In this document: one piece after another, positions 10,682 through 63,127 of the stretch
Numbering within the stretch: position 1 is the stretch's first letter
Layout: every line of letters begins with the position of its first letter
Assembly: GCF_964204645.1 (NCBI RefSeq)
Contig: NC_134031.1
Coordinates: forward strand, 8,556,001 to 8,620,000
Reading direction: 5' to 3'
Origin: Tubulanus polymorphus
Lineage: Eukaryota > Animalia > Nemertea
Length of the DNA: 64,000 nucleotides
Made by a program: the position numbers and the translations under genes
The notes under the pieces: model-generated
Seen by the model: the letters and a program-made list of their open reading frames with translations, nothing else
Told to the model about the DNA's origin: nothing
Databases searched by the model: none

Positions 10682-12541
10682 ATGGAACGATTGCGTGGCT
10701 CTCATGAAAGTGACAGAGAGTGGAGGTTACGCGAAGCATTTCTCAATGCTCACCAGGACAGATTTAGCAAGGATCGCTTGATCTGTTTATCTCATTGTTT
10801 CATTAATGTGGAAATGTATGGCACATCGTACCCCCCGGGAGTGATGCGTATTCTGAGCGAACTTTCCGCTGATGTCAGTGATGATGTGGATGAACTTCGT
10901 CGACAGAAAAAGCAACGTGCAGAGGTTAAATTCGTAAAGGCATCGGATACAGGTAATAAATCAAACGTACTATTGACCAAGTGTAAATCTGAACCGACTA
11001 AAAAACCTATGGTTGGTTTTGTAAAAGCATCCAGCGAGCAGTGCTCAAGTGCGGGTAGTGATGCTCTATCAAGTGGCCGGTCTGGTGCCGATTATTGGGT
11101 AAAAAATGATTCTGTGGAAAGCGTTGTTAGCCTCCACGATGAAAATGACAAATCACCTGTATCCGCTGAAAAATCATCTGAACCAGAAATAAGAACTGGT
11201 AATAGCCGTCGAGGTTTGGGAGCAACTCTCAGGTCGACCAAATCTAAGGAAAAGAAGTCTTCAGTTGTAAACAAGGTCCAATTAGATGAAAGATTTACGC
11301 AAGCTAAATTAAATATAAAATCTGAAGAGGACAGAAAATTTTATTTGCTTGCAGAAGCAATTGCTGAGATAGAAACTGAAGGCATTAATTGCATATCTCT
11401 CATGCATGAATCTTGTGCGAAAACCAAAATGTCTGCCAGTATTGACTTTTCAATGAACAGTCATCAGTACATTTGTCACTTACATATAGATAGTGTAGCT
11501 GTAGCACATGGAATGGGTAACAATAAAAGAACTGCGAAATACGAAGCATATTCTAATGCTATTCAGTCTCTAAAAAAGCCACACTTACATGTCGATCGTG
11601 TCAACCCTGAAAAAACTGAATTGAAAGCCACTGACGAACCTGGAGAAAATGATAGTACTGATGGTGGTATGATGAAGCTTGGTCAACAACAAGTGGCAGC
11701 ACGCGGTATGAAACGTTTACATCCAGATTCTCAAAGGAAGCAAAAACATATCGGTCACAGTAAACCTGGTGGATCACTGGCTGATTTCATCATTTTAGAA
11801 CACGGTTATGTGACCGAACCTAATCCTATCAGTATCATGCATAGCAGTTCCACATTCAATAAGACTAAAATGGAATTTGACTTTAGTGATGGGCGTAGTC
11901 GATTATCGTTGAATGGAGATCTCATTGCTGAAGTGACTCCTACTCAAGAAATGACACCGGGCGTGAAAAAAACCAAGTTATGCGAAATAGCACTTGGAAA
12001 GCTTCGAAAAATGTGTTGGACTATCGAAGTGAAAAAAGCTCACACGAGTGAAACGGGTGTGTCTCGCGATGAAATTCTTGGTGAAATCAACAAACAATCA
12101 GAAACCCTCAACGATTCAAATATCGGCAGTAAGATGTTGAAAAAGATGGGCTGGTCCGGTGGAGGCATTGGAAAAGATGGAAATGGCATTAGTGAGCCGA
12201 TAAAAGCTGACCTAACCGTCATTAAGAGACAAGGCTTTGGTCTGCAAAAAGAGCAAGGCATTAGCAAAGACTTTGTTGAAAATATCCGAATAACGTTGCG
12301 GAACTATATGCGATCTCGCGATGAAACTGACCTTTCATTTACATCCGAATTTAGTAAAGAAGAACGTGCGCTCATACATCAAGAGGGCTCAAAATTGGGA
12401 CTTAAAACCCAAAGCAGAGGCACTGCAGATGAACGATATCTGATTGTTAGTCGGAAACGTGATCTATCTCAGTTAATTTCACATATTCAGAGAAGTGGTG
12501 GATCTACTAGTAAATATGAACTTTTGCCTCCGTTATGGTGA
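10682..12541 (+). CDS. NKRF: NF-kappa-B-repressing factor / CARF-like protein (XRN2-binding XTBD, dsRBD-like, G-patch, R3H), single coding exon
   Basis: 619-aa ORF with N-terminal ESDREWRLREAFL...DRLICLSHCFINV (XTBD), GMGNNKRTAKYEAYSNA (dsRBD), NIGSKMLKKMGWSGGGIGKDGNGISEPI (G-patch) and FSKEERALIHQEGSKLGLKTQSRG (R3H); splice acceptor TTTTCTTTGTAG ends at 10675. Confidence 0.88.
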   Translation: MERLRGSHESDREWRLREAFLNAHQDRFSKDRLICLSHCFINVEMYGTSYPPGVMRILSELSADVSDDVDELRRQKKQRAEVKFVKASDTGNKSNVLLTKCKSEPTKKPMVGFVKASSEQCSSAGSDALSSGRSGADYWVKNDSVESVVSLHDENDKSPVSAEKSSEPEIRTGNSRRGLGATLRSTKSKEKKSSVVNKVQLDERFTQAKLNIKSEEDRKFYLLAEAIAEIETEGINCISLMHESCAKTKMSASIDFSMNSHQYICHLHIDSVAVAHGMGNNKRTAKYEAYSNAIQSLKKPHLHVDRVNPEKTELKATDEPGENDSTDGGMMKLGQQQVAARGMKRLHPDSQRKQKHIGHSKPGGSLADFIILEHGYVTEPNPISIMHSSSTFNKTKMEFDFSDGRSRLSLNGDLIAEVTPTQEMTPGVKKTKLCEIALGKLRKMCWTIEVKKAHTSETGVSRDEILGEINKQSETLNDSNIGSKMLKKMGWSGGGIGKDGNGISEPIKADLTVIKRQGFGLQKEQGISKDFVENIRITLRNYMRSRDETDLSFTSEFSKEERALIHQEGSKLGLKTQSRGTADERYLIVSRKRDLSQLISHIQRSGGSTSKYELLPPLW

Positions 12542-20579: not shown

Positions 20580-20694
20580 AGTAATAGGGGTAATAGGCTT
20601 TCAGGCCAAAGGTCGAACGGTCGAGAAATTTTCCAAATGTGAAAATAACAATAATTTCTACTTGTATTAGTCGCGTACACTCCTAATTCAAACC

Positions 20695-22231
20695 TAAAAT
20701 GTTTTAACATTGATCCTTGTCATTCTCATTCTAGTCCAGGATTAACTTGGGATTGTGGTTTAAAATTTACAGATATAGAAATGGATTTGTTAATAAATAT
20801 AGATCAATTATTATTATTTGAAAAGTCTATAAGAGGAGGAGTTTCGGGTGTATTAGGGGATAGATATTTCAATGTAAATGATAACCCTGCATAAGTTATT
20901 ATATATAGATGCAAATAATTTGTATGGTTGGGCAATGATGGAACCACAACCTTATGGAGTATTTGAAATAAGTGAAGTTTTACAACATGAAAATAATGAC
21001 AAATTTGATTGGAAGAAAAGAATCCTAGATATTGCAGATGATTCAGAGACTGGTTACTTCTTTGTTGTAGATTTAGAATATCCTGAAAATATTAAATTTA
21101 AATCTAGAAATCTAGCATACTGTCCCGAACATAAAACTGTAACTCATGAAGAATTATCAAATTATTAAAAAAGAATTAAACCCGAAAATTATATTCATAC
21201 AGAAAAGTTAATGGTAACTCAAGCAGATAAATATGATTATGTAGTACATTATAGAATGTTGAAGTTTTATTTGAATCAAGGAATGATCCTAAAAAAAGTA
21301 CATAGATATATTTCATTCAGTCAATCTAAATGGTTAGAAAAATATATAGATTTTAACACCAAATAGAGAACTGAAGCTAAAACTGATTTCGAGAAAGATT
21401 TCTTCAAGTTAATGAACAATGCATTCTATGGAAAAACTTGTGAAAATATTAGAAATAGAAATGATATTGAGTTAGTTAGTAATGGTAAAAGAATTAGACA
21501 TTTACAAACATATCCTTAATTTATAGGTAACAGAATATTTGATGAAAATTTAGCCGCAGTTAAAATGAGAAGAACATCAATGAAATTTAATAAACCAATT
21601 TATGTTGGTGCTTCAGTTTTAGAAATATCAAAGCTATTGATGTATGAATTCTATTATAATGTATTACAACCTAATTTTGGAGAAAAACATATAGAAATCT
21701 TATATTTTGATACTGACAGTTACATATTAAAGATAAAAACTAATAACATAACTGATGATTAAAAAACATCATTTTGATTTCAGTTATTATCCTAAAAATC
21801 ATGAATTGTTTAGCAATGATAATAAAAAAGTTCCTGGTAAATTCAAAGATGAATTAGGTGGTGAAGAAATGATTGAATTCATTGGTATTAGATCTAAAAT
21901 GTATTCATATAAAAACTAAAGAACATGAAGCTAAAAAGTTAAAAGGAATAACCAAAAGTGTAGAAGAAAAGAATATTCATTTCAAAGATTACATCAATTG
22001 TATATTCAATGAAGAAGTTAGAAAACATAAGATGAGATGTTTAAGATCTGAAGATCATGAGATGTTTATTGAAGAGATAAGATAAGTCTAAACCCATTTG
22101 ATGATAAAAGATATATTTTAGATGATGGAATTCATACAGTTGCATATGGTTGTAATTTAGATGAATACTTAAAATTTAAAAGAGAAGAAACAAAAGAGAA
22201 CGAGATTATGAACAGGATTCTAACGTGTTAA
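20695..22231 (+). pseudogene. Protein-primed family B DNA polymerase, C-terminal part, intein-free allele
   Basis: YIDANNLYGWAM (motif A), KLMNNAFYGK (motif B), ILYFDTDSY (motif C); several stops and frameshifts. Confidence 0.9.
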
Positions 22232-23746: not shown

Positions 23747-23753
23747 TAAATAA

Positions 23754-24867: not shown

Positions 24868-24883
24868 TTTTTTAATTATATAA

Positions 24884-31912: not shown

Positions 31913-31944
31913 AATTTTAACTTTAATAAAAATTTATATAATAA

Positions 31945-35621: not shown

Positions 35622-35826
35622 TTATATTAGAGAAAAAAAAACAAAATAAATATTATAAGTATTCTTCAAATGATACTAGCTAGTTAAAGCTAAAGAATTT
35701 CTATTCGGATCTATTCAAAATATAAAGTATTCTCTTTTTGAAAAGAAAATATTAAAAATATAATAGAATTCACTGGTTAGTTGAAGTTATATAATTGTTA
35801 ATATTTTTTATTTGAGATTTTATTCT

Positions 35827-38311: not shown

Positions 38312-38435
38312 AGTAATAGGGGTAATAGGCTTTCAGGTTAAAGGTTGAACGGTTGAGAAATTTTCCAAATGTGAAATAATAATAATTTCTACTTGAATTA
38401 GGAGTGTACGCGACTACCGGTAATTCAAGTAGAAA
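38312..38435. mobile_element. Foldback mini-element with Polinton-like AGTAAT terminus, truncated by a family B HINE
   Basis: Near-identical to 20580-20690; stem TTTCTACTTGAATTA...TAATTCAAGTAGAAA. Confidence 0.55.
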
Positions 38436-46899: not shown

Positions 46900-47830
46900 A
46901 TCCGAAGAAATGGAAAGACGATGATCGCATGGCAGACGTGAAGCATATTAAAGAAGCAAAGCATGAGAAAATTGAACACGCGTTGGTTTTGTGGTTTTCT
47001 CCTGTTCGTGCAAAAAATATCCCTGTAACACAGGACATATAACGGACAAAAGCCCAGGCCTTCGGGACTGAACTCGCTATCGGTGATTTTCAGTACTCGA
47101 TGGATTACACGATTCAAAAAGCGCTTCGGAATATCAAATAGGAAATTATCAGGGGAAAGTGCAGGTGTAGAAAAAACCCTGATAGAGGAGGGAATATTTA
47201 AAGCAAAGGCCCTATTGAAGGATTATGCACCTAAAGATGTCTTTAATATGGATAAAACCAGACTCTTTTATCAGATGTTACCGGACCGTTCCCTCATTAC
47301 GTCCGAATTTGTCAAAGGCACAAAAAGGCCAAAACACGCATTTCTTTGGCTGTGTGTGCCAATGCTGATGGCTCACAGAAGATGCGATTATTTCTTTGTA
47401 AAGTTCAAAGTTAATTTGTACTGCAATAACCATAGTAATGTTAAGGCTTGGATGACAAGCCTGTTGTTTAACGACTGGTTAGATGATTTCAATGCCACAA
47501 TGAAGCGTGTCGATCGAAAGGTGCTTCTACTACTGGACAATGCGCCTTCACACATCGTTCCAGAATACGAGGACGGGGAGCTCCGGCTTTCAAATATATG
47601 ATGATGATGATGATGATGACGCCAGTAATGCAGACTGCTCTGATCATTCAGTTACAACATCAGCTGAGGTTAGGGTGGCTATTCAGACCATATTATGTTA
47701 CATAGAAAATAATTAAAACGCAAACGAAGATGACGTCGTTTCTGTAAATGATCTGAGGGCAAGATTAGATTCCCTTGTTCTCCAGTCATCAAAACAAACA
47801 GCTATTACTGATTTCTTTAAAAATAACTGA
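46900..47830 (+). pseudogene. pogo/Tigger (CENP-B HTH + DDE_1) transposase remnant
   Basis: IEHALVLWF...NIPVT, WITRFKKRFGI, DVFNMDKTRLFY, KAWMTS, VLLLLDNAPSH, C-terminal KQTAITDFFK; stops, frameshifts and deletions. Confidence 0.85.
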
Positions 47831-47896
47831 AATATAGCCTACGTGAGCCTGTGGATTTTAATTCCCAGTGTTAGATTCTGATTTTTAATCGTTCTT

Positions 47897-47960
47897 AAGA
47901 ATTGGAAAAGTAGGCTTTCAGATCAGAGGACGAGACACCACTCGTCACCACAAGTAATTT
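47897..47960 (+). repeat. Left TIR of element 2
   Basis: Reverse complement of 62625-62697, apart from a short duplication on the right and terminal mismatches. Confidence 0.9.
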
Positions 47961-47973
47961 TTTTTCCTAATAA

Positions 47974-50900
47974 ATGGGGGAGAATGAACACCAGCCAGAA
48001 AACAATAATGTTAATAAAAATCAATATTATTGCACATATTGTAAAAAATACGTCGATACATCTAATAAAACACGACATGAAAAAACTGCAAATCATATAA
48101 AAAATGTAATAGATTTTGAAACTCCAGAAAATTCCAATGAAAGAAAAGAAAGATTAGAAAATATGAATGTGGATGAAATAAAATGTGAAGTTTGTAATGA
48201 ATTTATAGTAAAAAGGAATTATAATAGACATCTCGAATCACAAAAACACCATCAAAATTTGAGTAATAATGTTTTAGGAAAAGATTATTTTGATGATAAA
48301 CCTCAAAAAGTAAAAAAAACCAACTTCAAAAACTAAATCCATTTCAAATAAACCTTACATGGAAAATGTTAGAAATTATATTGATTCACTAGAACAAAAG
48401 ATACAATTGAAATTTTAGAAACATTACATAGTAAAATTGGTCCTGCAGCTATTATATTTAGATTTTTTAAAGGTACAACAATAGAAGATTATAGTACATT
48501 TAATGAAATACTAGAAAAAATACTAGATTTGATAACAGATGTTGAATATCCAAAAATTAGTATCTCTGGGAAAGTAAGTTTTATAAAGTCAGAAGAAAAA
48601 GTGAATTATAATATTCAAACACACTCTGAAGAAATAATTTCAAAAACACAAATAAAAGAGAAGTTAGAAAAAATATTTAATGAATTTAAACGTCATATTG
48701 AAGAAAGATATTTTGAGGGTTCTGGCTTAACATTGAATGAAATTATATATTTAGATTTAAATGTTTATAATACAAAAAGAAATAAAACATCAAAAAGTAA
48801 TAAAATGTTTAAAAATGATTCAAACTTTACAACAGAAAAGGATATTAAAGCATCATCTTATGTTAAATTACCATTTACAACAAAAGCAGTAATAAATATT
48901 CAAAATAAAGATAATAAATGTTTTCTATGGTCAATTATTAGTTGCTTACATCCAACACAGGAAAATGTTTGTAGAATAACAAATTACCGGAAATATGAAA
49001 CATTATATAAAATTTATCAATATCCAGTAACTATAAAAATGATTCCTAAAATAGAAAAAGTTGATAATTTAAAAATAAATGTATTTGAATTAATGCAATT
49101 ACCAAAGACAAAAGGTGAAAATATTAAAGATTATACATTGGAAGCTTTATATTTAACAGAATATTATGATGATGAAAATGCTATAGATTTGTTATATTAC
49201 AAAAAAGATGAAAATGAACATTATATGTGGTTAAAACAAATTGATTTATTCTTTAGAACAGAAAGTGATCACCATAATAAAATTTATCTATGTAGAAAAT
49301 GTTTATCTAAATTTATGACTGAGAATACATTATTAAAACATAAAGAATTATGTGATAATATAGATTTTTGTAATGCCAACAGAAAAAGATTATAAATTGA
49401 AATTTACTAATCATAAATTTAAGAATATTGTTCCATTTGTAATTTATGGGGATTTTGAATCGTTGAATAAAGAATTAACTGATCAAGATAGAAAAGAAAT
49501 ATATAACAAAAAGCAATTATTAAAATCAATGGATAAAGGAAATGAATTAAATGAAGACACAATACAAGACCAACCAATTATAAATACAATTAAAAAAGTT
49601 CATCAAAGAGCTGCTGCTTATGGAATTTATATAAAATCAAATTATCCTGAATTATATGAAAGTCAATATATTTCTATTAGAGGTGAAAATGTAGTTAATG
49701 ATTTTTGTGATAAAATGATTGAATTAGAAAGTGATTTTTCAAAATTATTAAACAAAAATAAAAGAATAGTTATGACAAAAGAAGATGAAATTGATTTTAA
49801 TTATGCAACTCATTGTTGTTATTGTGAAAAACGTTTTTATTCATTTGATAAAAAAGTTAGAGATCATGATCATTTAAATTCAAAATATCGTGGAGCTGCT
49901 CTTGAAGATTGTAATTTACAAGCTAAAAAAGTAAATTTCGTTCCAATATTATTTCATAATTTATCAGGCTATGATACCCATCTATTTATAAAACAATTAT
50001 CAAGGAAATTGGGCACAATTAATCAAGAAATAGAAGAATATAATGCTATGAATGGTGTAAATGTAAGAAAATATGATTTTAAACTATTAGCTAAAACATC
50101 TGAAAATTATGTTTCATTTCAATTTGGTTGCATTAGATTTCTAGATTCTTATAGATTTCTAGCAAGTTCATTAGATAATTTATCAAAAAGTTTAGTTGAT
50201 AATGATTTTCTAATAACTCGATATTATTATCCAAATGACCAAGATTTTAAATTATTGAGATATAAAGGTGCAATTCCTTATTCATTTTATAAAACACACA
50301 ATGATTTTAATGTAACAGAATTATTAAAAGATCAATTTTATGATCAATTTAAAGAGGAGTATGTGAAAGACGAAGTGTTTAATAGAACATTAAATGTTTG
50401 GAACCATTTTAAGATGAAAAATCATGGCGAATTAGTTGATTTATATCTAAAATCAGATGTCATGATATTGGCTGACATATTTGAAAAATTTAGAGAAGTT
50501 AATTTGAATCATTTTAATGTTGATCCTTGTTATTGCTACTCTAGTCCTGGTTTAACCTGGCAATGTGGTTTAAAATATACAAATGTAGAATTAGATTTAT
50601 TAAAAGAACCAGATATGGTTTTATTATTTGAAAAATCAATTAGCGGTGGAATTAGTGGTGTTATGGGAGATAGATATTTTAAAGCAAATGATGAATATAA
50701 ATTATTATATATTGACGCCAATAATTTATATGGCTGGGCAATGATGCAACCTCAACCATACAAAAATTTTATATTAACAGAAGTTGAAAATGATGATAAA
50801 ACTGATTGGGAAAGTGCAATTGCGAGTTTAAAAGATGAAGCACCAATTGGTTATTTCTTTGTAGTTGATTTAGAATATCCTGAAAATATAAAGTTTAAAA

Positions 50901-53028
50901 CAAGAAACTTACCTTATTGCCCAGAACATTTAACTGTAGATGATAGTTATTTAAGTGAATACCAGAAGAAAATAAAACCGAAAGATCATGTTTTTACAGA
51001 AAAATTAATACTTACTCAAAATAATAAATACAATTATATTGTTCATTATAGAATGTTAAAATTTTATCTAAAACAAGGAATGAAATTAAAGAAAGTACAT
51101 AGATATATTGAATTTAATCAATCGAAGTGGTTAGAAAAATATATAGATTTCAATACTCAACAGAGAACCATATCAAAAACAGATTTTGAAAAAGATTTCT
51201 TCAAATTAATGAATAATAGTTTTTATGGTAAAACATGCGAAAATATTAGAAATAGAAATGATATTGCATTAGTAAATAATTCTGAAAGATTAAGACATTT
51301 ACAATCAAGTCCTAGACATTTAGGAAATAAAAGATTTGAAGATTATTTTACAGCAGTTAAATTAAAAAGAACGTCAATGAAATTAAATAAACCTATATTT
51401 ATTGGTTCAACTGTTTTAGAAGTATCAAAATTATTAATGTATGATTTTTATTATAATGTTTTACAACCACTTTTTGGGGAAAAGCATATTGAAATATTAT
51501 ATTTTGATTCTGTAACAGCTGACACACCAATATTATTAAAATGTAATGATAAAATATTGATAAGAAGAATTTCAGAAATAATTCCAAAACAAAATGAATG
51601 TTATATTTCATATGGTGAAAAAGAATTAATACAAATAAATGGATTAATGGATGTTTGGACAAGAAATGGATGGAAAAAATTAAAGAATATTATTAGGCAT
51701 AAAACAAATAAGAAAATCTATAGAGTTAGAACTAAATTAGGTTCGTTGATGTTACAGAAGATCATAGTTTAATTAAACGAAATGGCGATGAAATAAAACC
51801 AACTGATATAAAAATTGGAGATGAATTATTACATAAAAGATTTTTCTAAAGAATGAATCATATGTCATTTGATGAAATAATTGATAATATTTATAATACA
51901 GAACCCGAAACATTAGAAGAAAAAGAATATTTTATCAAAGGATTTTTCATGGGTGATGGTTCAGCAGGTGTGTATGATTATGTTAATCGCACTCAATATT
52001 GCTGGTATTTATGCAATCAAGATTTGAAATTATTAGAAAGAATAAAGAAATTCTGTGAAGAAGTTTATTCACATAAAACATTCAAAATCATAGATGTTAT
52101 GAAATCATCGCAATGTTATAGAATACATGTGAATAATCCTAAAGATTTTGCTATAAAATATAATGACGAATTCTATATTCATGCAATAGTGAAAAGTAAT
52201 ACTTCAACTAAAGAAAAGATAATTCCAGATTATGTATTAAATGTAAAAAATAATTTAAGAAAATGGTTCTTCATTGGATTCTACGCAGCAGATGGTACTA
52301 AAAGTTTCAAAAATCGCAAAACAATATCTTTAGCTCAAAAAGGAAAAGTTGCTATATCAGGATTGAATATATTATGCAATTCATCAGGTTTTAATATGAA
52401 TATTGGATTGATTAAATCTAAACCAAATTGCTTTAATTTAAGCCATGTAGAAAATGAGTTAACAGAAGAAGTTAAAGATTTATTTGAAATATATAACCCA
52501 AAAGATTATGTTTATGATTTATCAACTGAAGATCGTACATTTAACTGTGGATTTCCATTAATAGCCAAAAATACTGACGCCTACATACTAAAAATCAAGA
52601 CAAATGACATAACAAAAGACTTAAAAACATTAAAACATCATTTTGATTTTAGCAATTATCCCAAAGATCATGAACTATTTAGCAATGATAATAAAAAGAT
52701 TCCTGGTAAGTTTAAAGATGAATTAGGGGGTGATGAAATGAATGAATTTGTTGGGATAAGAAGTAAAATGTATAGTTACAGAACAAAAGATCATGAAGCT
52801 AAAAAGTTAAAAGGAATAACAAAACATGTGGTTGATAAACATATAGAATTTCAAGATTATATAAAGTGTTTATATAAATCAATTGTAATGAAACATAAAA
52901 TGAATTGTTTAAGATCAGAAGATCACGAGATGTACATTAATGAAGTTGAAAAAACTAGTTTGAATCCATTTGATGATAAAAGGCATATTTTAGATGATGG
53001 TATAAAAACATTACCTTATGGCCATTAA
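47974..53028 (+). pseudogene. Protein-primed family B DNA polymerase (N-terminal zinc fingers, terminal-protein region, EndoVII-like insert, exonuclease, palm) containing an intein; several frameshifts and stops
   Basis: YGDFES, VRDHDHL, FHNLSGYDTHLF, YLKSDV, YIDANNLYGWAM, KLMNNSFYGK and YFD|intein|TD across ORFs 47974, 48529, 49373 and 51853. Confidence 0.92.
51509..52572 (+). mobile_element. Intein with dual LAGLIDADG homing endonuclease in PolB motif C
   Basis: Starts SVTADTPILL; block [10 protein letters not shown]; endonuclease motifs FIKGFFMGDG and FFIGFYAADG; block F YVYDLST; ends LIAKN followed by Thr+1; one frameshift at ~51744 and one stop at 51847. Confidence 0.93.
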
Positions 53029-53810
53029 AACATAAAATCAATATCATCATACTCGAAATCACTATTGGCTTCTTCATTTTCATTTAATTGTTCTTGTATA
53101 ATTTGTTTAGGTTCTTCCATTTCATTTTTCTCATTTAAATATAGTTCTATCTTGCACCACATTTCATCTCGCTCTCTTTGTTTCCTTTTGTTTGTTAATT
53201 CATCAAATGGAATTATAATATCTATGTTTAAATAATTTACAATCTTATTTAAAAGGAATTCATAATTTATTGAATCTGTTATTCTATTTTCCAAATGATA
53301 CATTAATATTTGTTTGAATATTTTTTTTATATTTTCCATATCTTCTTCTGTTAATTTAGGTTTTTCATAATAATCGTTAAATAATGAATATAAATACATT
53401 TTCTTTTGTTTTGTGTTAAATGTTGACGGAATAATTGTTTTTATAATATCTTTTTTAGTTATTTCACCATTTTTATCTTCTATTATTTTCATTTTTTCAA
53501 GCCATTGCTTATATTCTGGTGTATGATCTTCTATAGAAAATATTTTAAAAATTTCATCTAGATAATTTAATTTTGGATCTATGAGAAAATTTCTAGTTTT
53601 TTCTTCACCCCATAAATTCTTTTGCCATCCACATTCATTACAAAATAACACAGTACCTTCTTGTCTTAAGGTCGCATAACTACATTGTGGACATTTTCGT
53701 TTATAATTTATTGGTAATAGATCTTCATTAAGCTCTTGGTATTTTCTTACGTTTTCTTTATGTTTTATTGTTCTATTATGTAGATTTGAATTACTTGTTG
53801 TAATAATCAA
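53025..53810 (-). CDS. VLTF3-like (poxvirus A2L family) late transcription factor homolog
   Basis: Zinc ribbon CPQC..CNECG plus C-terminal IKKIFKQI...SINYEFLLNKIV...RDEMWCKI, resembling VLTF3 family motifs; start codon uncertain. Confidence 0.6.
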   Translation of the reverse strand: MIITTSNSNLHNRTIKHKENVRKYQELNEDLLPINYKRKCPQCSYATLRQEGTVLFCNECGWQKNLWGEEKTRNFLIDPKLNYLDEIFKIFSIEDHTPEYKQWLEKMKIIEDKNGEITKKDIIKTIIPSTFNTKQKKMYLYSLFNDYYEKPKLTEEDMENIKKIFKQILMYHLENRITDSINYEFLLNKIVNYLNIDIIIPFDELTNKRKQRERDEMWCKIELYLNEKNEMEEPKQIIQEQLNENEEANSDFEYDDIDFMF

Positions 53811-53820
53811 TTTACAATAT

Positions 53821-54351
53821 TTACAATAATGTTTTTCTTGTTAATTCATTATATTGTTTTTCTAACTTTTCAACTGTTTCTTTATTATCTGGTAACGTTA
53901 TCTCATATTTTATTTTTTCTAATAAATTATTTTTTCTTTCATTGAATTCAGTTTCAAATTTATTAGAAATTTTATCTATATGTGCTTTACGAAATTGATG
54001 ATTCTCCCAATCTTCTATATTTTCAGGGCTATATTTCATTCGACAAGGCTCACAGAAATGATCTTTTATATTATCCTTATCATAGAGTAAGAAAGGTCTT
54101 TTCCAAATAATTTCAGGTTCAACTTCAACAGAATTACTATTACTTTCATAACTATCAACATTAGCTGTTGCGCCATTAATTTTACACTTCTCTGAATGTT
54201 TTTTAACATAATTTCTTGAGAATAATTTATTACATTTTGGACAGTTTAGTTTAGGGGGTTTATAATTTTCATCATGTTTTTTCATATGTCGAGCCATATT
54301 ACTTTTTCTTAGAAGTTCACCACAAATTTCACATGGTATCTTCTCATCCAT
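53821..54351 (-). CDS. C2H2-type zinc-finger protein
   Basis: CEICGELLRKSNMARHMKKH, CPKC..H...C, CEPC...H.....H. Confidence 0.75.
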   Translation of the reverse strand: MDEKIPCEICGELLRKSNMARHMKKHDENYKPPKLNCPKCNKLFSRNYVKKHSEKCKINGATANVDSYESNSNSVEVEPEIIWKRPFLLYDKDNIKDHFCEPCRMKYSPENIEDWENHQFRKAHIDKISNKFETEFNERKNNLLEKIKYEITLPDNKETVEKLEKQYNELTRKTLL

Positions 54352-54409
54352 TTATTAGGGAAAAAAATTACTTGTGGTGATGAGTGGTAATTTTTTTATG
54401 TTATAAATA

Positions 54410-55197
54410 ATGGTAGAATTAAAAGAATACAGAATATTTGTTGATTCTAGAAGACTTACAAATTATAAATCTCATAATTTATTAATACAATTAGATAGAG
54501 AATTTCAGAATTGTGTAGATTTGAAATTAGTAAATATAAGTTTATGTAACTCTTTTTACAATATATCAGATAAAACTGATGAACATAGAAGCCTTTTTAT
54601 TTTTGATAAACTTAAAAATAAACATTTTCAACTTATGATTACACCAGGATTATATAATTTAGAAACATTAGCGCAGGAAATTAATAGAGAAGCTCGGATT
54701 ATGTTAGGTAGTGATTCTAAATTTAATATTAAATTCATAAAACGTGAGAGCTCTAATAAAATTAAAGTAAAGTTTGATGATGAATATTATAAACCTCATT
54801 TATTTATGATAAGAAGACATGTTTACATGGTAAAAAAATCTTTTGCTAAACTGTTAGGAATTCCTCCAGATAAATTTATTGTTGGAAACATATACGGTAT
54901 ATCAAATTTAATACCTTTTACGCATTTTATATTTATTGCAATTTAATTGATCCTACAAAAACATTTGAAGCAACTAAATATATAACTTGTAATTCTAGTA
55001 TATTAAACATTTTACCATTGAAGAATGTTAAACAATTTGGAACGCAAATAAATTATAATTTAGCTGAATGTGATTTTAAACCTTGTATTTCACATTTCAA
55101 TAATTTTAAATTAGAAATAAGAAATCATAATGGTTATTTAATTGATTTGAATAATTTTCCTGTGATATATGAATTAGTTATAAGACATAGAGAGTAA
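54410..55197 (+). pseudogene. Minor capsid protein (penton), one frameshift near 54930
   Basis: NSFYNIS, ITPGLYNLETLAQEIN, FAKLLG; the next frame gives YCNLIDP...LEIRNHNGYLIDLNNFPVIYEL. Confidence 0.75.
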
Positions 55198-55213
55198 TTT
55201 TTTCATTATATAA

Positions 55214-55570
55214 ATGAATATAACTGTTGGACCGAGTATATGTTTTGGATTTGATTTTAAACGTGAGAAAGAAATGAAATTTAACATTAATGATGTAATT
55301 ACACAAATCAAAAATATTGCATTTTCTAATGAAACAACATTTAAGTATGAAAAAACAATAGATAAAGAAACTTTTAATGTAGAAAAGATTAATAATTTAA
55401 TTAGAGAATCTTTAAGATTTTATGAATTAGATGAAGATTTTATCATCGATGATATTAAAAAAATAATAATTGAAATATATACAAATGAAACTAGTAATGA
55501 AATAAATGTTGAATTAATCATCACTAAGATAACTAAATATTTTGAAGATAGTAATTTTTTTGATAAATAA
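55214..55570 (+). CDS. Polinton hypothetical protein
   Basis: Conserved with element 1; TAAATG start. Confidence 0.7.
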   Translation: MNITVGPSICFGFDFKREKEMKFNINDVITQIKNIAFSNETTFKYEKTIDKETFNVEKINNLIRESLRFYELDEDFIIDDIKKIIIEIYTNETSNEINVELIITKITKYFEDSNFFDK

Positions 55571-55801
55571 ATGAGTGATAATAAGTGGATAATAACTGGA
55601 TTATATAATGGAGCATTACTATCAGTTGGAACTGTTGGTTATTCAATGGTATTAAAAAAAGTATTTAAAATGGGAAGTGTTAATGTTGATAGATTTGATA
55701 TAAATGATATCTTAAAATTAACATTAGCAGTTACTTTATCTAATTTAACTATTGATTATTTAGAAAAACAAAAATATATTCCTCCCATAATAAATGCATA
55801 A
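55571..55801 (+). CDS. Small putative membrane protein
   Basis: Conserved with element 1; hydrophobic. Confidence 0.7.
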   Translation: MSDNKWIITGLYNGALLSVGTVGYSMVLKKVFKMGSVNVDRFDINDILKLTLAVTLSNLTIDYLEKQKYIPPIINA

Positions 55802-55817
55802 TTTTTTTGCTAAATAA

Positions 55818-56243
55818 ATGGCTTCTGCAATTATAACTATTAGAGGATCAGCAATTGTTAACGCTTTAGCATTTACTGGTGGAGGTTATTTATTTAAACA
55901 TATTGATAAAAATGGATCATTAACAGAACAAAAAAAAAAACATAACTTAGCATTAGAAAAATACAATAAAGCTGCAGAAGAATATAGAGAAAAGAGGCAG
56001 AACTATATGGATTACATCAACAAAGAATTATATGATCAGAAGATTTCACATAGAGATTTTCAATTAGTCGATGATGCAATGAGTTTATATAACGCGCTAA
56101 CCAATAAAGAAAAATTACATCTATACAAACCTAAATTATCAGATTATTATACCCCAAGTAAAGAACAACAGAAATATGAAATAATTTGGATTTTAGGTGG
56201 AACAGTTATTGTTATATTTGTAGCATATAAATTTACTAATTAG
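55818..56243 (+). CDS. Putative virion membrane protein
   Basis: Gly/Ala-rich hydrophobic N-terminus (IVNALAFTGGGYLF), helical core and C-terminal TM; conserved with element 1. Confidence 0.7.
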   Translation: MASAIITIRGSAIVNALAFTGGGYLFKHIDKNGSLTEQKKKHNLALEKYNKAAEEYREKRQNYMDYINKELYDQKISHRDFQLVDDAMSLYNALTNKEKLHLYKPKLSDYYTPSKEQQKYEIIWILGGTVIVIFVAYKFTN

Positions 56244-56262
56244 TAATTTTTTTTCTAAATAA

Positions 56263-57561
56263 ATGCAAGATAAAGTTGATAATATTGATATTATTCCTCA
56301 TGATATAAATAAAACTAAATTAAAAATATATTTAGAAAAACAAATATTAGAATTTGAAAGTGACTTAAAGATAAAAAAGAAAAAATATTTAAAAATAAAA
56401 ATTATATATTATCTCATTATTAGTGGTTCGGTTACAATTAGTTCTGTAATAACATTTCTAGCAATATTCAGTCCATTAACACCTTTAGCTATATCAATTG
56501 GTGTATTAGGATTAAGTTCAAGTGTTTTAACTGGTATAAGTTCAAAATTAAATATAAAAAGTAATAAAGAAAAAATTAAAACTAATATAAAAGAAATTAA
56601 TAAATTAAAGAATACACTAGATTATATAATAAGTTTAAAACAAAGAATTAATGAATTATTTGAAATAATCAAAAAGAAATCAGAAACAGAAACAACTTCT
56701 GAACAGAATATAAATTCCAAAACTAGTAAACTTAAATCAAATAAAGTTCCAATTGAAAAACTTTTACCGAATGGATTAATTGATGCAACAGATCAACAAT
56801 TAGAAGATTTAAATAATATATTTTCTGATAAAGCAATTAGAGAAATTATTAGTATAAGGCTTGCATCTGATAAAATTGCGCATGATAAAAGTATAAGAGA
56901 TTTAAAAATTAGAACTTTAGAAAAAGAATTAACTGATAAAAATAAAGAAATAGAACAATTAAAATTAGAAAGAGATATTAAAGTTATTGAAGAAATTGAA
57001 TTTAAAAAAAGAAATACATATTTAGAAAAAGAAATTGATGATTTAGAATATAACATAGAATTACAAAAAGAAGAAATTAAATTATCATTAAAATCATATG
57101 ATTGTAATATTAATAGATTAAAAGTTATTTTTAAAGATTTATTGATAAAACCAAATTCTGAAATATCATTGAAAGATAGAATAAAGTTATTATTTAAATT
57201 AGAAGGAATAACAATTCTTTCAATTCTAACAGCTGTAACTATGTTATTTACAACAATTGGTTTAGCAATATCAAATGCTTTAAAATCTACTCCTACTCCA
57301 AATAAACCAGATAAACCCCCAGGTAATAATTCTATACAAGATAAGGTTAAAGATGGTTTAAAGAAATTAGCAAAATATTTATGGGAACTATCTAAAAAAT
57401 CTGCTGCAGCTTTACCAGGAATTATTGCATCAATTGTTGGTTTTATATTGAAATCTGCTGGGAATATTCTTAACTTTGCTGCTGAACATATTATTTTATT
57501 TTTAATTACAGTTGTAAGTGCTATTATTTTTGGGTTAGTGAATATGATTAGAAATAAATAA
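56263..57561 (+). CDS. Chimeric TM/coiled-coil ORF produced by an internal deletion joining two genes
   Basis: First ~126 aa match element 1 24442-24808; the remainder matches element 1 from ~26745. Confidence 0.7.
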   Translation: MQDKVDNIDIIPHDINKTKLKIYLEKQILEFESDLKIKKKKYLKIKIIYYLIISGSVTISSVITFLAIFSPLTPLAISIGVLGLSSSVLTGISSKLNIKSNKEKIKTNIKEINKLKNTLDYIISLKQRINELFEIIKKKSETETTSEQNINSKTSKLKSNKVPIEKLLPNGLIDATDQQLEDLNNIFSDKAIREIISIRLASDKIAHDKSIRDLKIRTLEKELTDKNKEIEQLKLERDIKVIEEIEFKKRNTYLEKEIDDLEYNIELQKEEIKLSLKSYDCNINRLKVIFKDLLIKPNSEISLKDRIKLLFKLEGITILSILTAVTMLFTTIGLAISNALKSTPTPNKPDKPPGNNSIQDKVKDGLKKLAKYLWELSKKSAAALPGIIASIVGFILKSAGNILNFAAEHIILFLITVVSAIIFGLVNMIRNK

Positions 57562-57581
57562 TTAATTTTTTTGTTAAATAA

Positions 57582-58829
57582 ATGAGTGGGAGTTATATAA
57601 GTCCTTCTAAGATTTCTAGAATATCTAATGCTATTAAAGCAGAAAGATCACATCATATAATTACTCATAATCCTTCAAATATTAATCCTGATGAAACTTT
57701 ATATGTTAGAATTCCTCGATTAACACAAAATACTTTTTATGTTCCAAATAGTAGTTATTTATCAGCTGATATAAAAGTAACTGGTCATGATAATAATTAT
57801 GTTGTTGATAATTTTGGGAGATATTTGATTAAAAAATTTACTATAAAGATTGGACCAGAAACAGTTTTCTCATTAGATGATTATAATTTATTTATGCATT
57901 ATAAAGATTTATGGTTAACTAAAGAAAATAGAAATAATATGATATTTCAGGGTATTCAATCGGAAAACCAAAATAAATTAAGATCAGGAGCTAATGACGC
58001 AATAGTAACTCGTGCCACAGATAATTTGATTAAAAAGATTTATGGAAGCAAATATAAAATTCCATTAGACTTTGAATTGATAAATAATAATGCACCTTTA
58101 TATAAATACGCAATTCAAGAAGATATTATATTTGAGATAACATTTGCTCCTGTAAATGAAATTGTATTATCTAGCGTTGTTAAAGATATGGGTTATAAAT
58201 TATCGAATATATGTTTAGAATATGACACAGTAACTAATGAAAATATTGCTAGCACAATTCAAACTCAATACAATCAAGGATTTTCATTATTATATGATTA
58301 TATTGATAAATTTAAAACTGTAACTATTAATGCAAATGATGAAATAATTAATGAGAATATTTACTTCCCAAGAAGATCTATTAAAGGTATATTAATATTT
58401 TTTACCATTGCAACATATTCTAATGGCGCAATGAAGGTAGATAATTATTATAATCCTGAAATAACAAAAGTAGAAATAACTATCGAAGGAATAGCAAATA
58501 AAATATTTTGTCAAGGAATGAGAATGATAGATCAGTGGCCAGAAATAAGAAAACATTTCATGAATGAAAAAGTAAAATCATTTGAAAATTGTAATATTAA
58601 TCAAATTGATTATTATACCGGCAATAAATATGCATTATGGTTAGATTTTAGAACAACAGAGGATGATTGATTACATGGTTCTGGGAAAAAACTACAGAAC
58701 ACTAAAGATGGAATACAATTATTTATGAAAAAGAAAAAAGGAAGCTTAAATTTTAAAATGCACATTTATATTATATCTGACGCACAATTAAATATTGTAA
58801 ATTCACAATTAGATAGTATTCAATATTAG
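57582..58829 (+). pseudogene. Major capsid protein, single internal TGA at 58668-58670
   Basis: The frame continues after TGA (LHGSGKKLQNTKDGIQL...DAQLNIVNSQLDSIQY), matching element 1. Confidence 0.78.
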
Positions 58830-58859
58830 AAATATAAAGTTAAAATTGAGGATATATAA

Positions 58860-59987
58860 ATGGGTGGTAAAAAAACTCCTAATACTAAAGAACAATATTT
58901 AAGAAATTTATATTACAACCCTGAGAGTTCGGTTGCTTATTCTTCTACTAAAAATATATGGCGTCAAGTAAAACAAGATAAATTAGATAAGATAATCCCA
59001 CAAAATTTAGTTAAATATAAAGATATAAATCAATTTATGTTAGAACAACCAACATATACAACACATAGATAAATTGTTAGAAATTATAAAACTCGTAAAA
59101 CTATGGTAAGTTATGTAGATCAACAGTGGCAAGGAGATTTAATTGATATGAAAAATGTTAAGAAAGATAATAATGATTATTGGTGGTTATTGAATATAAT
59201 TGATATTTTTAGTCGTTATGTATGGAGTTTCCCACTTTATAGAAAAGATGCTGTACAAACATCAAATGTTTTAAGAAAATTTCTTTCGGATGATAAACTA
59301 AAACCAGAAAAAATACAATTTGATGATGGAAAAGAGTTTGATAATTCACTTGTTCATGAACTCTTAGATAATCATAATATTAAATATTTTTCAACAAAAT
59401 CGGATAAAAAAGCAGCAGTTGTTGAACGATTTAATAGAACATTAAGAACAAGAATGTGGAAATATTTTACCGCAAATAATACTTTTAAATGGATTGATGT
59501 TTTACCAAAATTGATAGAAGGATATAATAATTCTTATCATTCTTCTATTGGAATGAAACCTATTGATGCTAGAAAACCTGAAAATGCTGAAATTGTTTGG
59601 AATAATTTATATGGAGCATTTCTTGTAGATGATTTTGGTGAACCTAAATTTAAAGTTGGTCAAAATGTTAGAATTTCTAAGTATAAAAAGATATTTGACA
59701 AGGGATACGATCGAAATTTTACTAGAGAAATATATAAAATAAAAAAGGTAATAACAACAAAACCATATGTCTATAAATTAGAAGATTTAGATGGTGAAGA
59801 AGTTGATGGGTATTTTTATGAAGAAGAATTGAGTTTAACTACTGAAAATCTAGAACAAGAATATAAAATTGAAAAAGAATTAAAAACAAAAACTATTAAA
59901 AGAAAAAAATATTCTTTAGTAAAATGGATTGGATGGCCAGATAAATTCAATGAATGGATATTATCAAGTAAAATTAAAAATATATAA
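58860..59987 (+). pseudogene. rve integrase with chromodomain, single internal stop at 59070-59072
   Basis: WQGDLIDM, IDIFSRYVW, IQFDDGKEF, VERFNRTL (DDE); YKIEK...LVKWIGWPDKFNEWI chromodomain. Confidence 0.92.
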
Positions 59988-60596
59988 ATGAATAAGGAAT
60001 TATTCATATTTGAGCCTCATAATATGTTAATTTCTGGCGTAACAAATTGTGGAAAAACTTATTTTGTATCAAATTTATTAGAAACTGTTTATGAAAACTA
60101 TTTTGATAATATAGTATTATTTTGTCCAACATATGAATTTAATCAAACTTATGATAGAAATATTACTAGAAATAATAAATTTATTATATTAGATCCTAAA
60201 ACAGTAAAAGAAAATTTAGATAATTGTATTAAAATAGCAATAGATATTTATAAAGGATCAAATACATTATTCATTATAGATGATTGTGCAAATTTACATG
60301 ATTCAAAAATTGGAGAGAGTGAGTTATGTTATTTAGCTTTTTCTGGCAGACATTTTGGGATAATAACTTGGGTTTTAAATCAAAAATATAATTCAATTGT
60401 TAAAGACTTTAGAGAAAACATTAGATTTCTAGTTTTATTCTACAATAAAGATAGAAAATCGATGAAAAATGCACTTGAGGAAAATGATATAATTCCACAT
60501 GATTTACATAATGAATATATGGATAAGTTGAAAAATATTAAAAGATCAAAATTACTATTTAGATTACAACACCCATTTAAATATGAATTTATTTAA
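59988..60596 (+). CDS. A32/FtsK-like genome packaging ATPase
   Basis: Walker A GVTNCGKT, Walker B LFIIDD, GRHFGI..W.LNQ motif. Confidence 0.9.
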   Translation: MNKELFIFEPHNMLISGVTNCGKTYFVSNLLETVYENYFDNIVLFCPTYEFNQTYDRNITRNNKFIILDPKTVKENLDNCIKIAIDIYKGSNTLFIIDDCANLHDSKIGESELCYLAFSGRHFGIITWVLNQKYNSIVKDFRENIRFLVLFYNKDRKSMKNALEENDIIPHDLHNEYMDKLKNIKRSKLLFRLQHPFKYEFI

Positions 60597-60599
60597 ATT

Positions 60600-60870
60600 C
60601 AACTAGCTTGTTAATCTAGTTGAATTCTAGTTACATTCTAGTTGAATTCTAGTTATTGGTAGTTGGAACAAAAATCAACTAGATTTAACAATATTTTAAC
60701 TAGCTTGTTAATCTAGTTTAATTTTAGTTACATTCTAGTTGAATTCTAGTTGTTAGTAGTTGGAACAAAAATCAACTAGATTTAACAAGAAATAAACAAA
60801 AACAACAATATTTCAACTAGCTTGTTAATCTAGTTGAATTCTAGTTACATTCTAGTTGAATTCTAGTTAC
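60600..60870. repeat. Intergenic tandem repeat, ~97-bp unit x2.5 built from 11-bp CTAGTT subunits
   Basis: AACTAGCTTGTTAATCTAGTT begins at 60601, 60698 and 60815. Confidence 0.9.
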
Positions 60871-60900
60871 AACATCATAACTAATTTTTTTGTTATATAA

Positions 60901-61504
60901 ATGGTAGGTGAAAAGAAAATAAAATCTAAAAATGGTGATGTTCCAATTGAAAAAACTAGATGATTTAGGAATAACAGAAAACAAATTAATTCCAGATGAT
61001 GGTGTTTTAAATAATGTTTCAACAAATAATAATTATGAATAATATCTTTATTGTAAACATCAATTAGAAATATTAATAGCATCTGGAAAATGTAAAAATT
61101 TTGTCGGTAAAAATTTAACTTATAATGAATTAGATACAATGAAATCAGATGAAATTATTAGATTATTTAAGATTTATGAAACCGCGAGAACAGCTAGAAT
61201 TAATGACGCGATATCAGAAAATGTAGTAAAAGGTTATAGTAAATTATGTAATTATATGCTGCCAATTCAAGATGAAAATAGATTATATGCTGATTTAAAA
61301 AATGATTATTTAGTTATGACCGAATTAAATAAATGGATTGGATATTTATCATTTCAATTAAGTGGATTTATGACATTATTATCTACTGGAGTTATAACAT
61401 TTTCAAATATTGAAAGTAAAAATATTTCTATAATAAATGAGCGAGGTGGAAGAAGTGAAGGAATTAACTGTGAAGAAAAAACCGAGATCACAGAAACAAA
61501 TTGA
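60901..61504 (+). pseudogene. Hypothetical protein homologous to 35019-35621, frameshifted near the 5' end
   Basis: TAAATG at 60901; intact C-terminal 121 aa from 61139. Confidence 0.65.
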
Positions 61505-61805
61505 ATGGTCTCGGCAATTAGGAATTAAATCACAAGAATATAAAAAAGCTGTAAAAGAAAAAATAAGTAATAAAAATGTTAATAAAAATAGTGAAAATAT
61601 TGTTATTTCTACTCCTTCTAATAACAGAATATTTGATAAATGTCTATATTTTACAGTTGGATTTGTAATTGTATTCATTTTGATTGGGTGTAATTGGTAT
61701 AAGAAATCAAATAAAATTCATGATATTAATAATTCTGAAACAACTGCTATCAAAAATGAAAATAATTCTGAAATTCCAAAATTGACAATAAAAAAAATGG
61801 ATTAA
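61437..61805 (+). CDS. Hypothetical basic protein with a TM segment
   Basis: KKPRSQKQIEWSRQLG matches the element 1 remnant near 34950-35015 (KKPRSEKQIKWARELG). Confidence 0.65.
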   Translation: MSEVEEVKELTVKKKPRSQKQIEWSRQLGIKSQEYKKAVKEKISNKNVNKNSENIVISTPSNNRIFDKCLYFTVGFVIVFILIGCNWYKKSNKIHDINNSETTAIKNENNSEIPKLTIKKMD

Positions 61806-61992
61806 TATTTTAGAAAAAAAGCAAAAAAATAATTTTTTTAATTAATTGAATATTAATTGAATATCACCATGTGGGTGCCATACGGCACCATCTCACTTCT
61901 TTTGTCTATCTATGCGGAGCAATTAAATTGTCCAGATAAGTCATTTCGGATTCTAGATATTCATTATTTTTATTAATTTATTTTTTTTAAAT

Positions 61993-62317
61993 TTAATCAA
62001 CAATTTCTAAATCATGATGTCCATCTTCATTTTTTCCATGATAGATTATTTTAAATCCTTCTAAATCTTTTAATTCCTCTGTACTCAATGAAACCCATTT
62101 ATCAGGTAAAAATACTTTAAATTCTCGCGATGTACTAACATTACAGTAACTTAAATTCGCTGATATTTCCTCTATATTTAGTTTTTATCTTTTCTAATTT
62201 CAATATTTTATGTTCATTTTCTTTTGTAACATCAACTAACTTTTTTATTTCAAATTGTTTTTTTGCTGGTTTTATTCTGTTATTTATTGTTGCTAAGAAT
62301 GCTTTTCTATCTCCCAT
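61993..62317 (-). pseudogene. Homolog of 22261-22614, frameshifted
   Basis: Manual translation gives FKVFLPDKWVSLSTEELKDLEGFKIIYHGKNEDGHHDLEIVD. Confidence 0.6.
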
Positions 62318-62624
62318 TTATAAGGAAAACAAATTACTTGTGGTGATGAGTGGGGATTACTTCCCCTGTATATAACAAACACGCTATTAACCGTTCTCAC
62401 CCAAGCCTCACAGCATCTATTTATCTGGGCACAGTTGACACGCAATCACTGAACTACAGTAATAACACACGCGTTAATAACCGTTCTCAGTAGAGACTCA
62501 CTGTATCGATCTATCCGCGCGCAGCTGTTGTTACGCGCACTCACTGTATATGTGTACCACAGAGAGCAATCGTCCGTTCTCACTAGAGCCTAGCTGTGAT
62601 GAGTGGTGTCTCATACTCAATTGA

Positions 62625-62697
62625 ATTATTACTTGTGGTGATGAGTGGTGTCTCGTCCTCTCGTCCTCTGATCTGAAAGCCTACTTTTCCAATTACT
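62625..62697 (-). repeat. Right TIR of element 2
   Basis: Ends ...AAAGCCTACTTTTCCAATTACT (5'-AGT terminus on the minus strand), followed by TSD GTTCTT. Confidence 0.9.
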
Positions 62698-63127
62698 GTT
62701 CTTAATTATTCTTAATCGTTTTTCAATAGTATGCAGTGTTGTAACAACCGTGTGTAACGACCGCTGGTTTTTCGCCGACTAAAAGAAAAGCGTCTTCTGA
62801 AATTTCATTTATTCCTACCAGACATTGATACATTTAATAAAAGAATTTGTCCAAGTCCGAATCATGGATGTTTTCTTTAACGATTTGCTCTATTTTTTTG
62901 GTCTACCAAGTTATAAAAGATGCTGTATTCTGCGGAAAGTTCCATTCCTCCCCCTTCCGTGTCTTTCTTTCGTCCATTATCTGCAGGGGCAGAACTAGGG
63001 GGGTGTCGGGGTGTTTTTTGAACAAAGGTTTTGCACCTATAATTATTTTTTCAACGCACGAAATGACCGAACGCATCCCCCTTGTAGATTGAAAGAAACT
63101 TGTTAAAAATTGTTTAATGTACATATC

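Follow-up and report, generated by a model that had tools for sequence, protein, structure and literature searches.

Motif C holds catalytic aspartates of family B DNA polymerases (PolBs), and an intein inserted into it lies, in the pol-a/b/c naming of insertion sites, at the pol-c site. Here we analyse a 64,000-nucleotide stretch of the nemertean Tubulanus polymorphus (contig NC_134031.1, positions 8,556,001 to 8,620,000; hereafter the window), in which such an intein (51509..52572, forward strand) interrupts the protein-primed PolB (pPolB) gene of an integrated Polinton. The closest described counterpart is the intein of the Mimivirus polymerase R322, which is predicted to be active and occupies the last of the sites that Ogata et al. 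number I-III, pol-c being site III (PMC549080). The R322 intein (PMC549080, PMC5784728) resembles the one in the window in its motif C site, first serine (Ser1), block-B Thr and His, two LAGLIDADG motifs, terminal Asn, following threonine (Thr+1), penultimate Lys and length (351 vs. 355 amino acids). Its best archaeal match is at 24% (Ogata et al., PMC549080), far below the 40-46% identity with viral inteins found here. Unlike the giant-virus pol-c inteins, the intein of the window resides in the pPolB of a multi-copy Polinton in animal chromosomes, and belongs to a clade of its own with a long stem.

A survey of eukaryotic inteins (PMC5784728) lists 257 eukaryotic and 136 viral inteins from fungi, algae, protists and giant viruses, and its section 5 and table contain no animal taxon; the endings PLIVKN and PLIVHN, discussed below, were not found in its supplements. 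For Klebsormidium, Tetrabaena and a labyrinthulomycete, nuclear scaffolds with intein-bearing viral polymerases have been reported, along with inteins of Anaeramoeba (Gallot-Lavallee et al. 2023, PMC10710043). These cases are like ours in that the gene of a viral-type DNA polymerase brings an intein into a eukaryotic chromosome, with viruses as vectors; however, the hosts are algae and protists, and the accessible text is free of the words 'polinton', 'animal' and 'metazoa', whereas here the carrier is a multi-copy animal Polinton with filled (intein-bearing) and empty alleles. For Polinton pPolBs, insertions of HNH and VSR nucleases have been described (Jeong et al. 2023, PMC10748475; neither 'intein' nor 'LAGLIDADG' occurs in the accessible text), and a single sentence of Krupovic et al. 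2024 (PMC11071308) suggests intein invasions from the HNH/VSR domains in these polymerases. The insertions of PMC10748475 are, as presented in that text, bare HNH or VSR domains, whereas the insertion analysed here comprises a complete splicing domain and a LAGLIDADG endonuclease at motif C, with matching empty alleles.

In gene content, our element agrees with the Polintons/Mavericks described as 'adintoviruses' (Starrett et al. 2021, PMC8502044): it has a pPolB (PF03175), an rve integrase, an A32 ATPase, a capsid-like gene, terminal inverted repeats (TIRs) and a 6-bp target-site duplication (TSD); the accessible text of that work makes no mention of inteins, homing or LAGLIDADG. The group I introns of protist Polinton-like viruses (PMC12220804) are likewise self-splicing selfish elements in a Polinton-type genome, but, in the accessible text, they splice at the RNA level, in protist hosts, outside the polymerase and without an annotated endonuclease. 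In the accessible parts of the reviews, Hedgehog/Hint domains are the only carriers of Hint reported from animals. They share Hint-type chemistry with inteins; they are host genes without an endonuclease and do not lie between two exteins, whereas the intein of the window has empty alleles and viral relatives. A Hedgehog/Hint host gene is ruled out by these empty alleles and by the endonuclease. Three further papers (PMC7765530, PMC5718144, PMC13768754) offer, in their accessible parts, general statements only on this subject. Our literature search, the coverage of which ended short of most subscription journals, InBase and the supplements of PMC10748475, PMC8502044, PMC11071308 and PMC10710043, turned up no published Hint-type intein from either a Polinton or the genome of an animal. 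The intein is of a known type, but in a host gene class and a kingdom without a described case in the literature searched. We consider it probable that the locus represents a homing intein in the catalytic motif of a Polinton polymerase on an animal chromosome, likely derived from one old entry from a viral RNA-primed PolB (probably that of a giant virus), and predicted to splice and to spread by cutting empty alleles.

Results

A LAGLIDADG intein of predicted class 1 splits motif C

The PolB reading runs to EKHIEILYFD at 51508, and the intein opens with SVTADTP at 51509 (ILYFD|SVTADTPILL); it closes with FNCGFPLIAKN (YVYDLSTEDRTFNCGFPLIAKN|TD) at 52572, where the polymerase continues TDAYIL, motif C of the pPolB thereby being split as YFD|TD. 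The 1,064-nt insert, which read in three frames gives 355 residues with X at both of its breaks, consists of an N-terminal splicing region (51509..51765, with Ser1 of block A at 51509), an endonuclease and a C-terminal splicing region. The three-frame reading places block B (VDVTEDHSL, with T-E-D-H at 51754-51765), LAGLIDADG motif 1 (FIKGFFMGDG, 51931..51960), LAGLIDADG motif 2 (FFIGFYAADG, 52267..52296) and blocks F and G (52507..52572, with the block-F Asp of VYD kept and a Lys before the terminal Asn, then Thr+1), all on the forward strand. Of the residues of a class 1 intein, the following are found: Ser1, block-B TEDH, block-F Asp, terminal Asn and Thr+1. This agrees with an earlier reading of the letters alone (the original prediction), which had described the same split of motif C with the same blocks and had counted one frameshift (~51744), one stop (51847) and ~355 amino acids. 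Its statement that the Mimivirus intein begins SVTGDTP and ends IVKN is right according to the supplement of PMC5784728.

Comparison to domain models yielded the Hint and LAGLIDADG matches that the original prediction expected. The 78-residue N-terminal piece scored 29.4 bits against TIGR01445 (intein_Nterm; curated cut-off 24.5), and the remainder of the intein scored 27.1 bits against LAGLIDADG_3 (PF14528, cut-off 22.5), which covers motif 2; the match of the remainder to Intein_splicing (expectation value, E, 0.0016) was below that model's cut-off. With X at the breaks, the intein matched all 360 positions of a profile built only from inteins of RNA-primed PolBs, at 330 bits, and this end-to-end match rules out a chance resemblance. 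A sequence search of the PDB returned a weak match only (PI-PkoII, E 0.015). For the structural comparison, an unbroken relative, P0175 (P and L numbers label database relatives), stands in for the window copy: it folds with a value of 93 in the predicted local distance difference test (pLDDT) with a 53-row alignment, and its best PDB matches are the endonuclease-bearing inteins TliVMA, PhoVMA, PI-PkoII, PI-PfuI and PI-SceI, plus I-DmoI (E 6 × 10−18 and template modelling score 0.63 against solved inteins; root-mean-square deviation about 2.5 Å against I-DmoI). The model of the window's own piece, folded without an alignment, had a pLDDT of 36 and was not used. Another relative, P0174, passes the cut-off of PF14890. 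By these sequence comparisons, the insert is a class 1 LAGLIDADG pol-c intein with a Hint splicing fold, for which splicing is predicted.

Filled and empty alleles coexist in the species

In this copy the intein has two breaks, a change of frame near 51743-51744 and a stop codon at 51847-51849, and the copy is dead. The boundaries of the insert are exact: the site is uninterrupted in a second Polinton of the window. The pPolB of that element (element 1; 20691..22150, forward strand), decayed and 5'-truncated, aligns to both sides of the intein at 75-77% DNA identity to the exteins and reads EKHIEILYFD-TDS without an intein (YFD-TDS at 21703-21720; insertion point between 21711 and 21712).

Four public runs under one species label and from one study contain about half of the words sampled from the stretch; we aligned the reads of three of these runs and of one raw whole-genome shotgun (WGS) run with the same label from another study. 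Of the 7,322 reads of the independent WGS run that aligned to the stretch, 411 did so at 99% identity or above, 2,855 at 95-99%, 2,195 at 90-95% and 1,861 at under 90%; these bands reflect a diverged family of copies. Read depth was 132-250 over the intein, compared to about 500 in the adjoining bins and 244-465 in other extein bins. In the same run, 46 reads with 29 start places skip the intein exactly, joining 51508 to 52582. Reads that differ from the window number 217 of 234 at the stop and about 177 of 234-254 where the frame breaks; thus both breaks belong to the window copy and a few others. Sequencing error as the sole cause of the breaks is excluded by the other broken genes of the element and by the 17 of 234 reads without the majority's other letter at the stop. 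At six positions (50396, 51976, 52222, 52385, 52502 and 52534), covered by 136-347 reads, every read but 2-7 has one and the same letter different from the window's; if those 2-7 reads mark single-copy depth, we infer some tens of intein copies or more.

Many diverged filled copies and empty alleles therefore coexist in this species, and their presence in one animal suggests that the intein likely spreads by cutting and converting empty copies. The main rival to this reading holds that the intein splices but no longer homes here: a single gain was followed by vertical descent with losses, empty sites are uninvaded or precisely restored, and copy number grew by transposition only. The 23-25% DNA divergence between the empty and the filled allele of the window speaks for it, as does the agreement of intein and extein histories described in the next section; the comparisons among close relatives given there point the other way, and overall we regard a loss of homing as improbable.

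The intein belongs to an old Polinton-specific lineage

Using the unbroken C-terminal 241 residues of the intein as a query among longer proteins, we identified 5 matches in 1,447 candidates: three pPolBs in which an intein occupies this site (P0002-P0004), plus two PolBs of the RNA-primed kind. A HMMER search of 1.84 billion representatives gave 513 matches; the best 150 of these comprise nine pieces of the Polinton clade, a majority of RNA-primed PolBs with YGD|S...N|TDS, and a few inteins at other sites or in other proteins. The pol-c site named in the original prediction is the one used in most of these RNA-primed relatives. A profile of the Polinton inteins produced 172 matches in 6,074 candidates, and 116 of the best 120 scored higher with the Polinton-clade profile; 114 of those Polinton-clade matches come from ENA contigs, many of them long (up to 825 kb) and many decayed, which may represent few assemblies. 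Unbroken filled pPolBs were found in P0003, P0004 and P0319.

A careful, unrooted intein tree of 61 rows, chosen from the 117 rows of a FastTree analysis plus new hits (with 14 of 19 new viral loci used), united 13 Polinton inteins in one clade (support 100/99) with four sub-lineages. The polymerase tree recovers the same four lineages and contains 5 changes of state between filled and empty, at least 4 of them forced; each filled group adjoins or sits among empty ones, except the group of P0299 and L003. In pairwise comparisons, the inteins are about as similar to one another as the exteins are (51/47, 42/48, 50/47, 58/54 and 77/75%, intein first), and identity between the Polinton lineages is 42-58% for intein and polymerase alike. 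As intein and extein have diverged equally, the association is old and the jump was not a recent one in this animal; it need not have occurred in this animal, or in any animal. The original prediction is to be revised here, in that the intein is no one-off passenger of a single decayed copy; it represents an old lineage specific to Polintons, with many copies and, in this species, empty alleles beside the filled ones.

Parallel identities and concordant trees are what the absence of present homing would lead one to expect, and it is the distribution of filled and empty alleles among close relatives that speaks against it. Among the 120 closest long relatives of P0003 (cluster representatives), 2 are filled, 112 are empty and 6 end short of the site; with 2 filled among 114 readable full-length relatives, descent from a single gain would need many precise losses. 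Two of the empty relatives are named Mytilus edulis proteins (76-78% identity). The exteins of P0162 (empty) and P0159 (filled) are 100% identical over 567 and 169 residues, and of 15 members listed out of 121 in the cluster of P0002, six reach the site, five of them filled and one empty, with identical exteins. The acidic residues of the nuclease are also conserved, in 69 of 72 readable rows of the clade for LAGLIDADG motif 1 and 27 of 27 for motif 2, and the first residue is Ser or Cys in 40 of 43; these counts, taken only where the surrounding pattern matched, are biased upward. We therefore continue to favour spread by homing.

A further alternative concerns splicing rather than homing. 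The filled copies might be non-autonomous, with no splicing in animal cells and with polymerase supplied by the empty copies; helper copies of this kind exist, the window copy is dead in several genes, and many database relatives are decayed fragments. Full-length open filled polymerases nevertheless occur in three lineages (P0003/P0004/P0319, P0159 and, partially, P0299). Splicing residues and exteins are, moreover, both kept across about 50% divergence, as would be unexpected without selection on both; this conservation argues for splicing, and we consider non-autonomy quite improbable.

Two observations concern other pPolBs. The JGI protein P0220 (328 amino acids) has a pPolB-type N-extein (AKLLFTD, only 23 residues) and an intein outside the Polinton clade; judged by these residues, it probably represents a second, independent invasion of the same polymerase site. 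A separate pPolB lineage on megabase contigs (P0348-P0352 and P0368) has DTDC replacing DTDS at motif C, and all its members are empty.

The donor was likely a viral RNA-primed polymerase

The closest labelled relatives of the Polinton inteins are giant-virus PolB inteins at the same site (41-46% identity), the highest identities outside Polintons belonging to L021 and L022 (46 and 44%), from giant-virus metagenome-assembled genomes (MAGs). The ending of the Polinton inteins, FNCG(F)PLIV(H/K)N, lacks one residue compared with the usual FxAG(I/V)GxxIV(H/K)N. A DNA pattern for this shortened block-G ending identified 19 IMG/VR loci, all of them RNA-primed PolBs with the intein at motif C and 18 of them giant-virus MAGs; the same DNA pattern had 0 matches in GTDB genomes, and the shortened ending had no match in INPHARED phages. 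Protein patterns made from single Polinton inteins found nothing in IMG/VR, where the short DNA patterns did find loci. A search of the Atlas with P0175 provided leads only, all under 0.9, the best being a viral PolB/LAGLIDADG cluster. In the FastTree analysis, the Polinton clade joins a group of giant-virus and gp43 inteins (support 91). A recent jump from Mimivirus itself was rejected, the Polinton inteins being closer to one another than to any viral intein. From these comparisons, the donor was likely a viral RNA-primed PolB, and among the candidates a giant virus appears rather more probable than all others together.

The alternative is that the intein came from a T4-like phage polymerase, or from a polymerase resembling Pol delta that belonged to a protist or to another virus, the jump perhaps having taken place in a protist before these Polintons reached animals. 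Two T4-gp43-like polymerases, P0035 and P0038, have the block-G signature; P0005, which has the C4 zinc finger of Pol delta, has no close relative in IMG/VR (one match, 25%) and emerges as the weak sister of the Polinton clade in the careful tree. Set against this are the predominance of giant-virus MAGs among the labelled viral loci that show the signature (18 of 19), the best identity outside Polintons in L021/L022, and the general knowledge that phages and Polintons share no cell. We regard a donor of this kind as unlikely, though a good deal less so than a loss of splicing, and keep a giant virus as the favoured source.

Several findings weigh against the account given above, most of them against its donor. 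The careful tree separates the Polinton clade from the giant-virus/gp43 group by a 100/99 branch and places P0005 as sister (81/79), and the approximately unbiased (AU) test rejects neither placement (p = 0.43; the group had been named after the FastTree result). Of the 356 columns, none but the last 31 speak for the PLIVKN group of giant viruses (identity 0.55 vs. 0.43), and with support confined to these columns, convergence or a chimeric C-terminus is possible. The intein tree is unrooted and without labelled archaeal or bacterial inteins, and P0035 and P0038 carry the same intein sub-type (PLIVKN) as the giant viruses. Intein and extein trees agree on the four lineages, a pattern as compatible with vertical inheritance and losses as it is with homing. 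Finally, inteins of the window's type are without the block-F His and without the penultimate His, having Lys instead. This Lys does not exclude membership of class 1, in which the penultimate His is usual but dispensable: KN is common in the relatives (67 HN, 36 KN and 6 SN among 109 automatically cut relatives, one of them miscut) and the Mimivirus intein also has KN. Taken together, these findings leave the route of the original prediction, from a nucleocytovirus to a Polinton to an animal chromosome, standing in part: the integration holds, and the nearest labelled relatives are giant-virus PolB inteins, but a nucleocytovirus is only the most likely donor, since the sister group varies with method and gp43-like polymerases share the sub-type. 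The phylogeny it had proposed likewise divides, FastTree uniting the clade with the giant-virus/gp43 group and the careful tree separating them.

The sub-type shared by P0035 and P0038 suggests that phage-type and giant-virus polymerases have exchanged inteins; no confirmed relative of the gp43-like P0035 was found in IMG/VR. Some giant-virus PolB inteins have a decayed endonuclease: it is degenerate in L001 (837-5960), which also encodes a viral rhodopsin, and the region is shortened in L012 and L019 (264-277 amino acids). These three loci may show decay stages of the homing cycle.

The carrier is an integrated Polinton in an animal chromosome

The intein carrier (element 2; 47897..62697, forward strand, 14.8 kb) is an integrated Polinton with zinc-finger genes, a pPolB, putative capsid genes, an integrase and a packaging ATPase. 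Its TIRs (47897..47958, pairing with 62628..62697) are flanked by copies of a 6-bp TSD, GTTCTT (47891..47896 and 62698..62703). The pPolB N-extein (48385..51508, PF03175, E 9 × 10−20), which ends in YFD of motif C, is itself broken into two frames (48385-49392 and 49364-51508), and the C-extein (52573..53028) begins with TD. Downstream on the same strand are a putative major capsid protein (57582..58829, one internal stop), a retrovirus-type integrase (rve; 58860..59987, one internal stop) and an A32-type packaging ATPase identified by a domain match (59988..60596). The capsid assignment comes from weak matches to Capsid_N (E 0.18, and 0.004 for the element-1 copy), and no sequence match was found in the PDB; among the scanned open reading frames of element 2, no maturation or adenovirus-type protease was recognised. 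PF03175, rve, the A32 ATPase, the TIRs and the TSD bear out the Polinton pPolB carrier of the original prediction. Element 2 is dead, because its polymerase has a further frame change and its capsid and integrase genes have one stop each.

The TSD, a host gene and the chromosome-scale contig place the intein-bearing Polinton in an animal chromosome. The host gene (10682..12541, forward strand), an animal-type gene with XTBD, G-patch and R3H domains (NKRF/CARF family), has a mollusc-dominated cluster as its nearest Atlas cluster (0.95), the one match that would point to a mollusc as the probable host, and is recorded on a 21.6-Mb contig. The GC content of the element (22-25%) is far below that of its flanks (38-42%), as might be expected if contaminating, free viral or symbiont sequence had been assembled into an animal contig. 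Such an origin is at odds with TIRs and a TSD in host-like DNA, with a second decayed Polinton and the host gene in the same window, with decay by stops and frameshifts, and with reads from two studies whose identity bands span 85 to 100%; it is very improbable.

Element 1 (20580-38262) is a rearranged Polinton: one terminus stands almost directly before the 5'-truncated pPolB, the integrase/ATPase block has the opposite orientation to that of element 2, and another 100-bp copy resembling a terminus lies at 38311-38409. A 31-bp unit, present in 46 copies (87% matches), forms a 1.6-kb array that interrupts element 1 at 28687-30264 and has a long open repeat frame, and a short-repeat patch, different from that of element 2 described below, lies beside its ATPase (32839-32950). 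In element 2, the terminal repeat's inner portion (CCACTC.TCACCACAAGTAA, T run, CCT.ATAAATG) recurs at 47937-47984 (+), 54341-54388 (-) and 62310-62353 (-), and every copy leads into a gene's ATG, the genes being two zinc-finger genes and the last reverse gene; judged by this arrangement, the motif is likely a shared early promoter or leader. Between the ATPase of element 2 and the next gene are CTAG/TCTAG-rich repeats of 97 bp and 22 bp (60601-60871). The remaining features of the window are a decayed Tc5/pogo-type DDE transposase immediately left of element 2 (46900-47890), a Ty3/gypsy-like protease frame (41618-43315) and a dispersed host repeat that has a tandem unit of 154 bp and occurs in either orientation (453-1062, 4969-5564, 39953-40393 and 45954-46285).

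Discussion

A filled gene yields an active enzyme only if the intein splices, because motif C is catalytic. In unbroken copies, Ser1, the block-B Thr and His, the block-F Asp, the last Asn and Thr+1 would carry out class 1 splicing and restore YxD-TD. The two-motif LAGLIDADG domain would cut empty alleles at their motif C, and the intein would then be copied in when the break is repaired from a filled allele. The many Polinton copies of one nucleus, or co-infecting Polinton genomes, would give the filled/empty pairs, which single-copy animal genes are without. For the first jump, the bridge may have been motif C itself (YGD-TDS in RNA-primed and YxD-TDS in protein-primed PolBs).

A bolder version of this account is that the intein is now actively homing in the animal genome, where a selfish gene derived from a giant virus would convert dispersed Polinton copies, and that Polintons are a general door for inteins into animals, with at least four lineages and P0220 as instances. 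We hold this only tentatively, its chance being a little short of even.

The intein provides a sequence record of exchange between RNA-primed viral and protein-primed Polinton polymerases, families that share little beyond the catalytic motifs, and gives substance to the suggestion of intein invasion of Polinton polymerases made in PMC11071308. A complete endonuclease-bearing intein in many copies in animal chromosomes changes the map of intein distribution. The suggested reason for this exception is that a multi-copy mobile element provides the filled/empty pairs that homing needs, and with both types of allele in one genome, the question of why animals lack inteins would become testable with population data.

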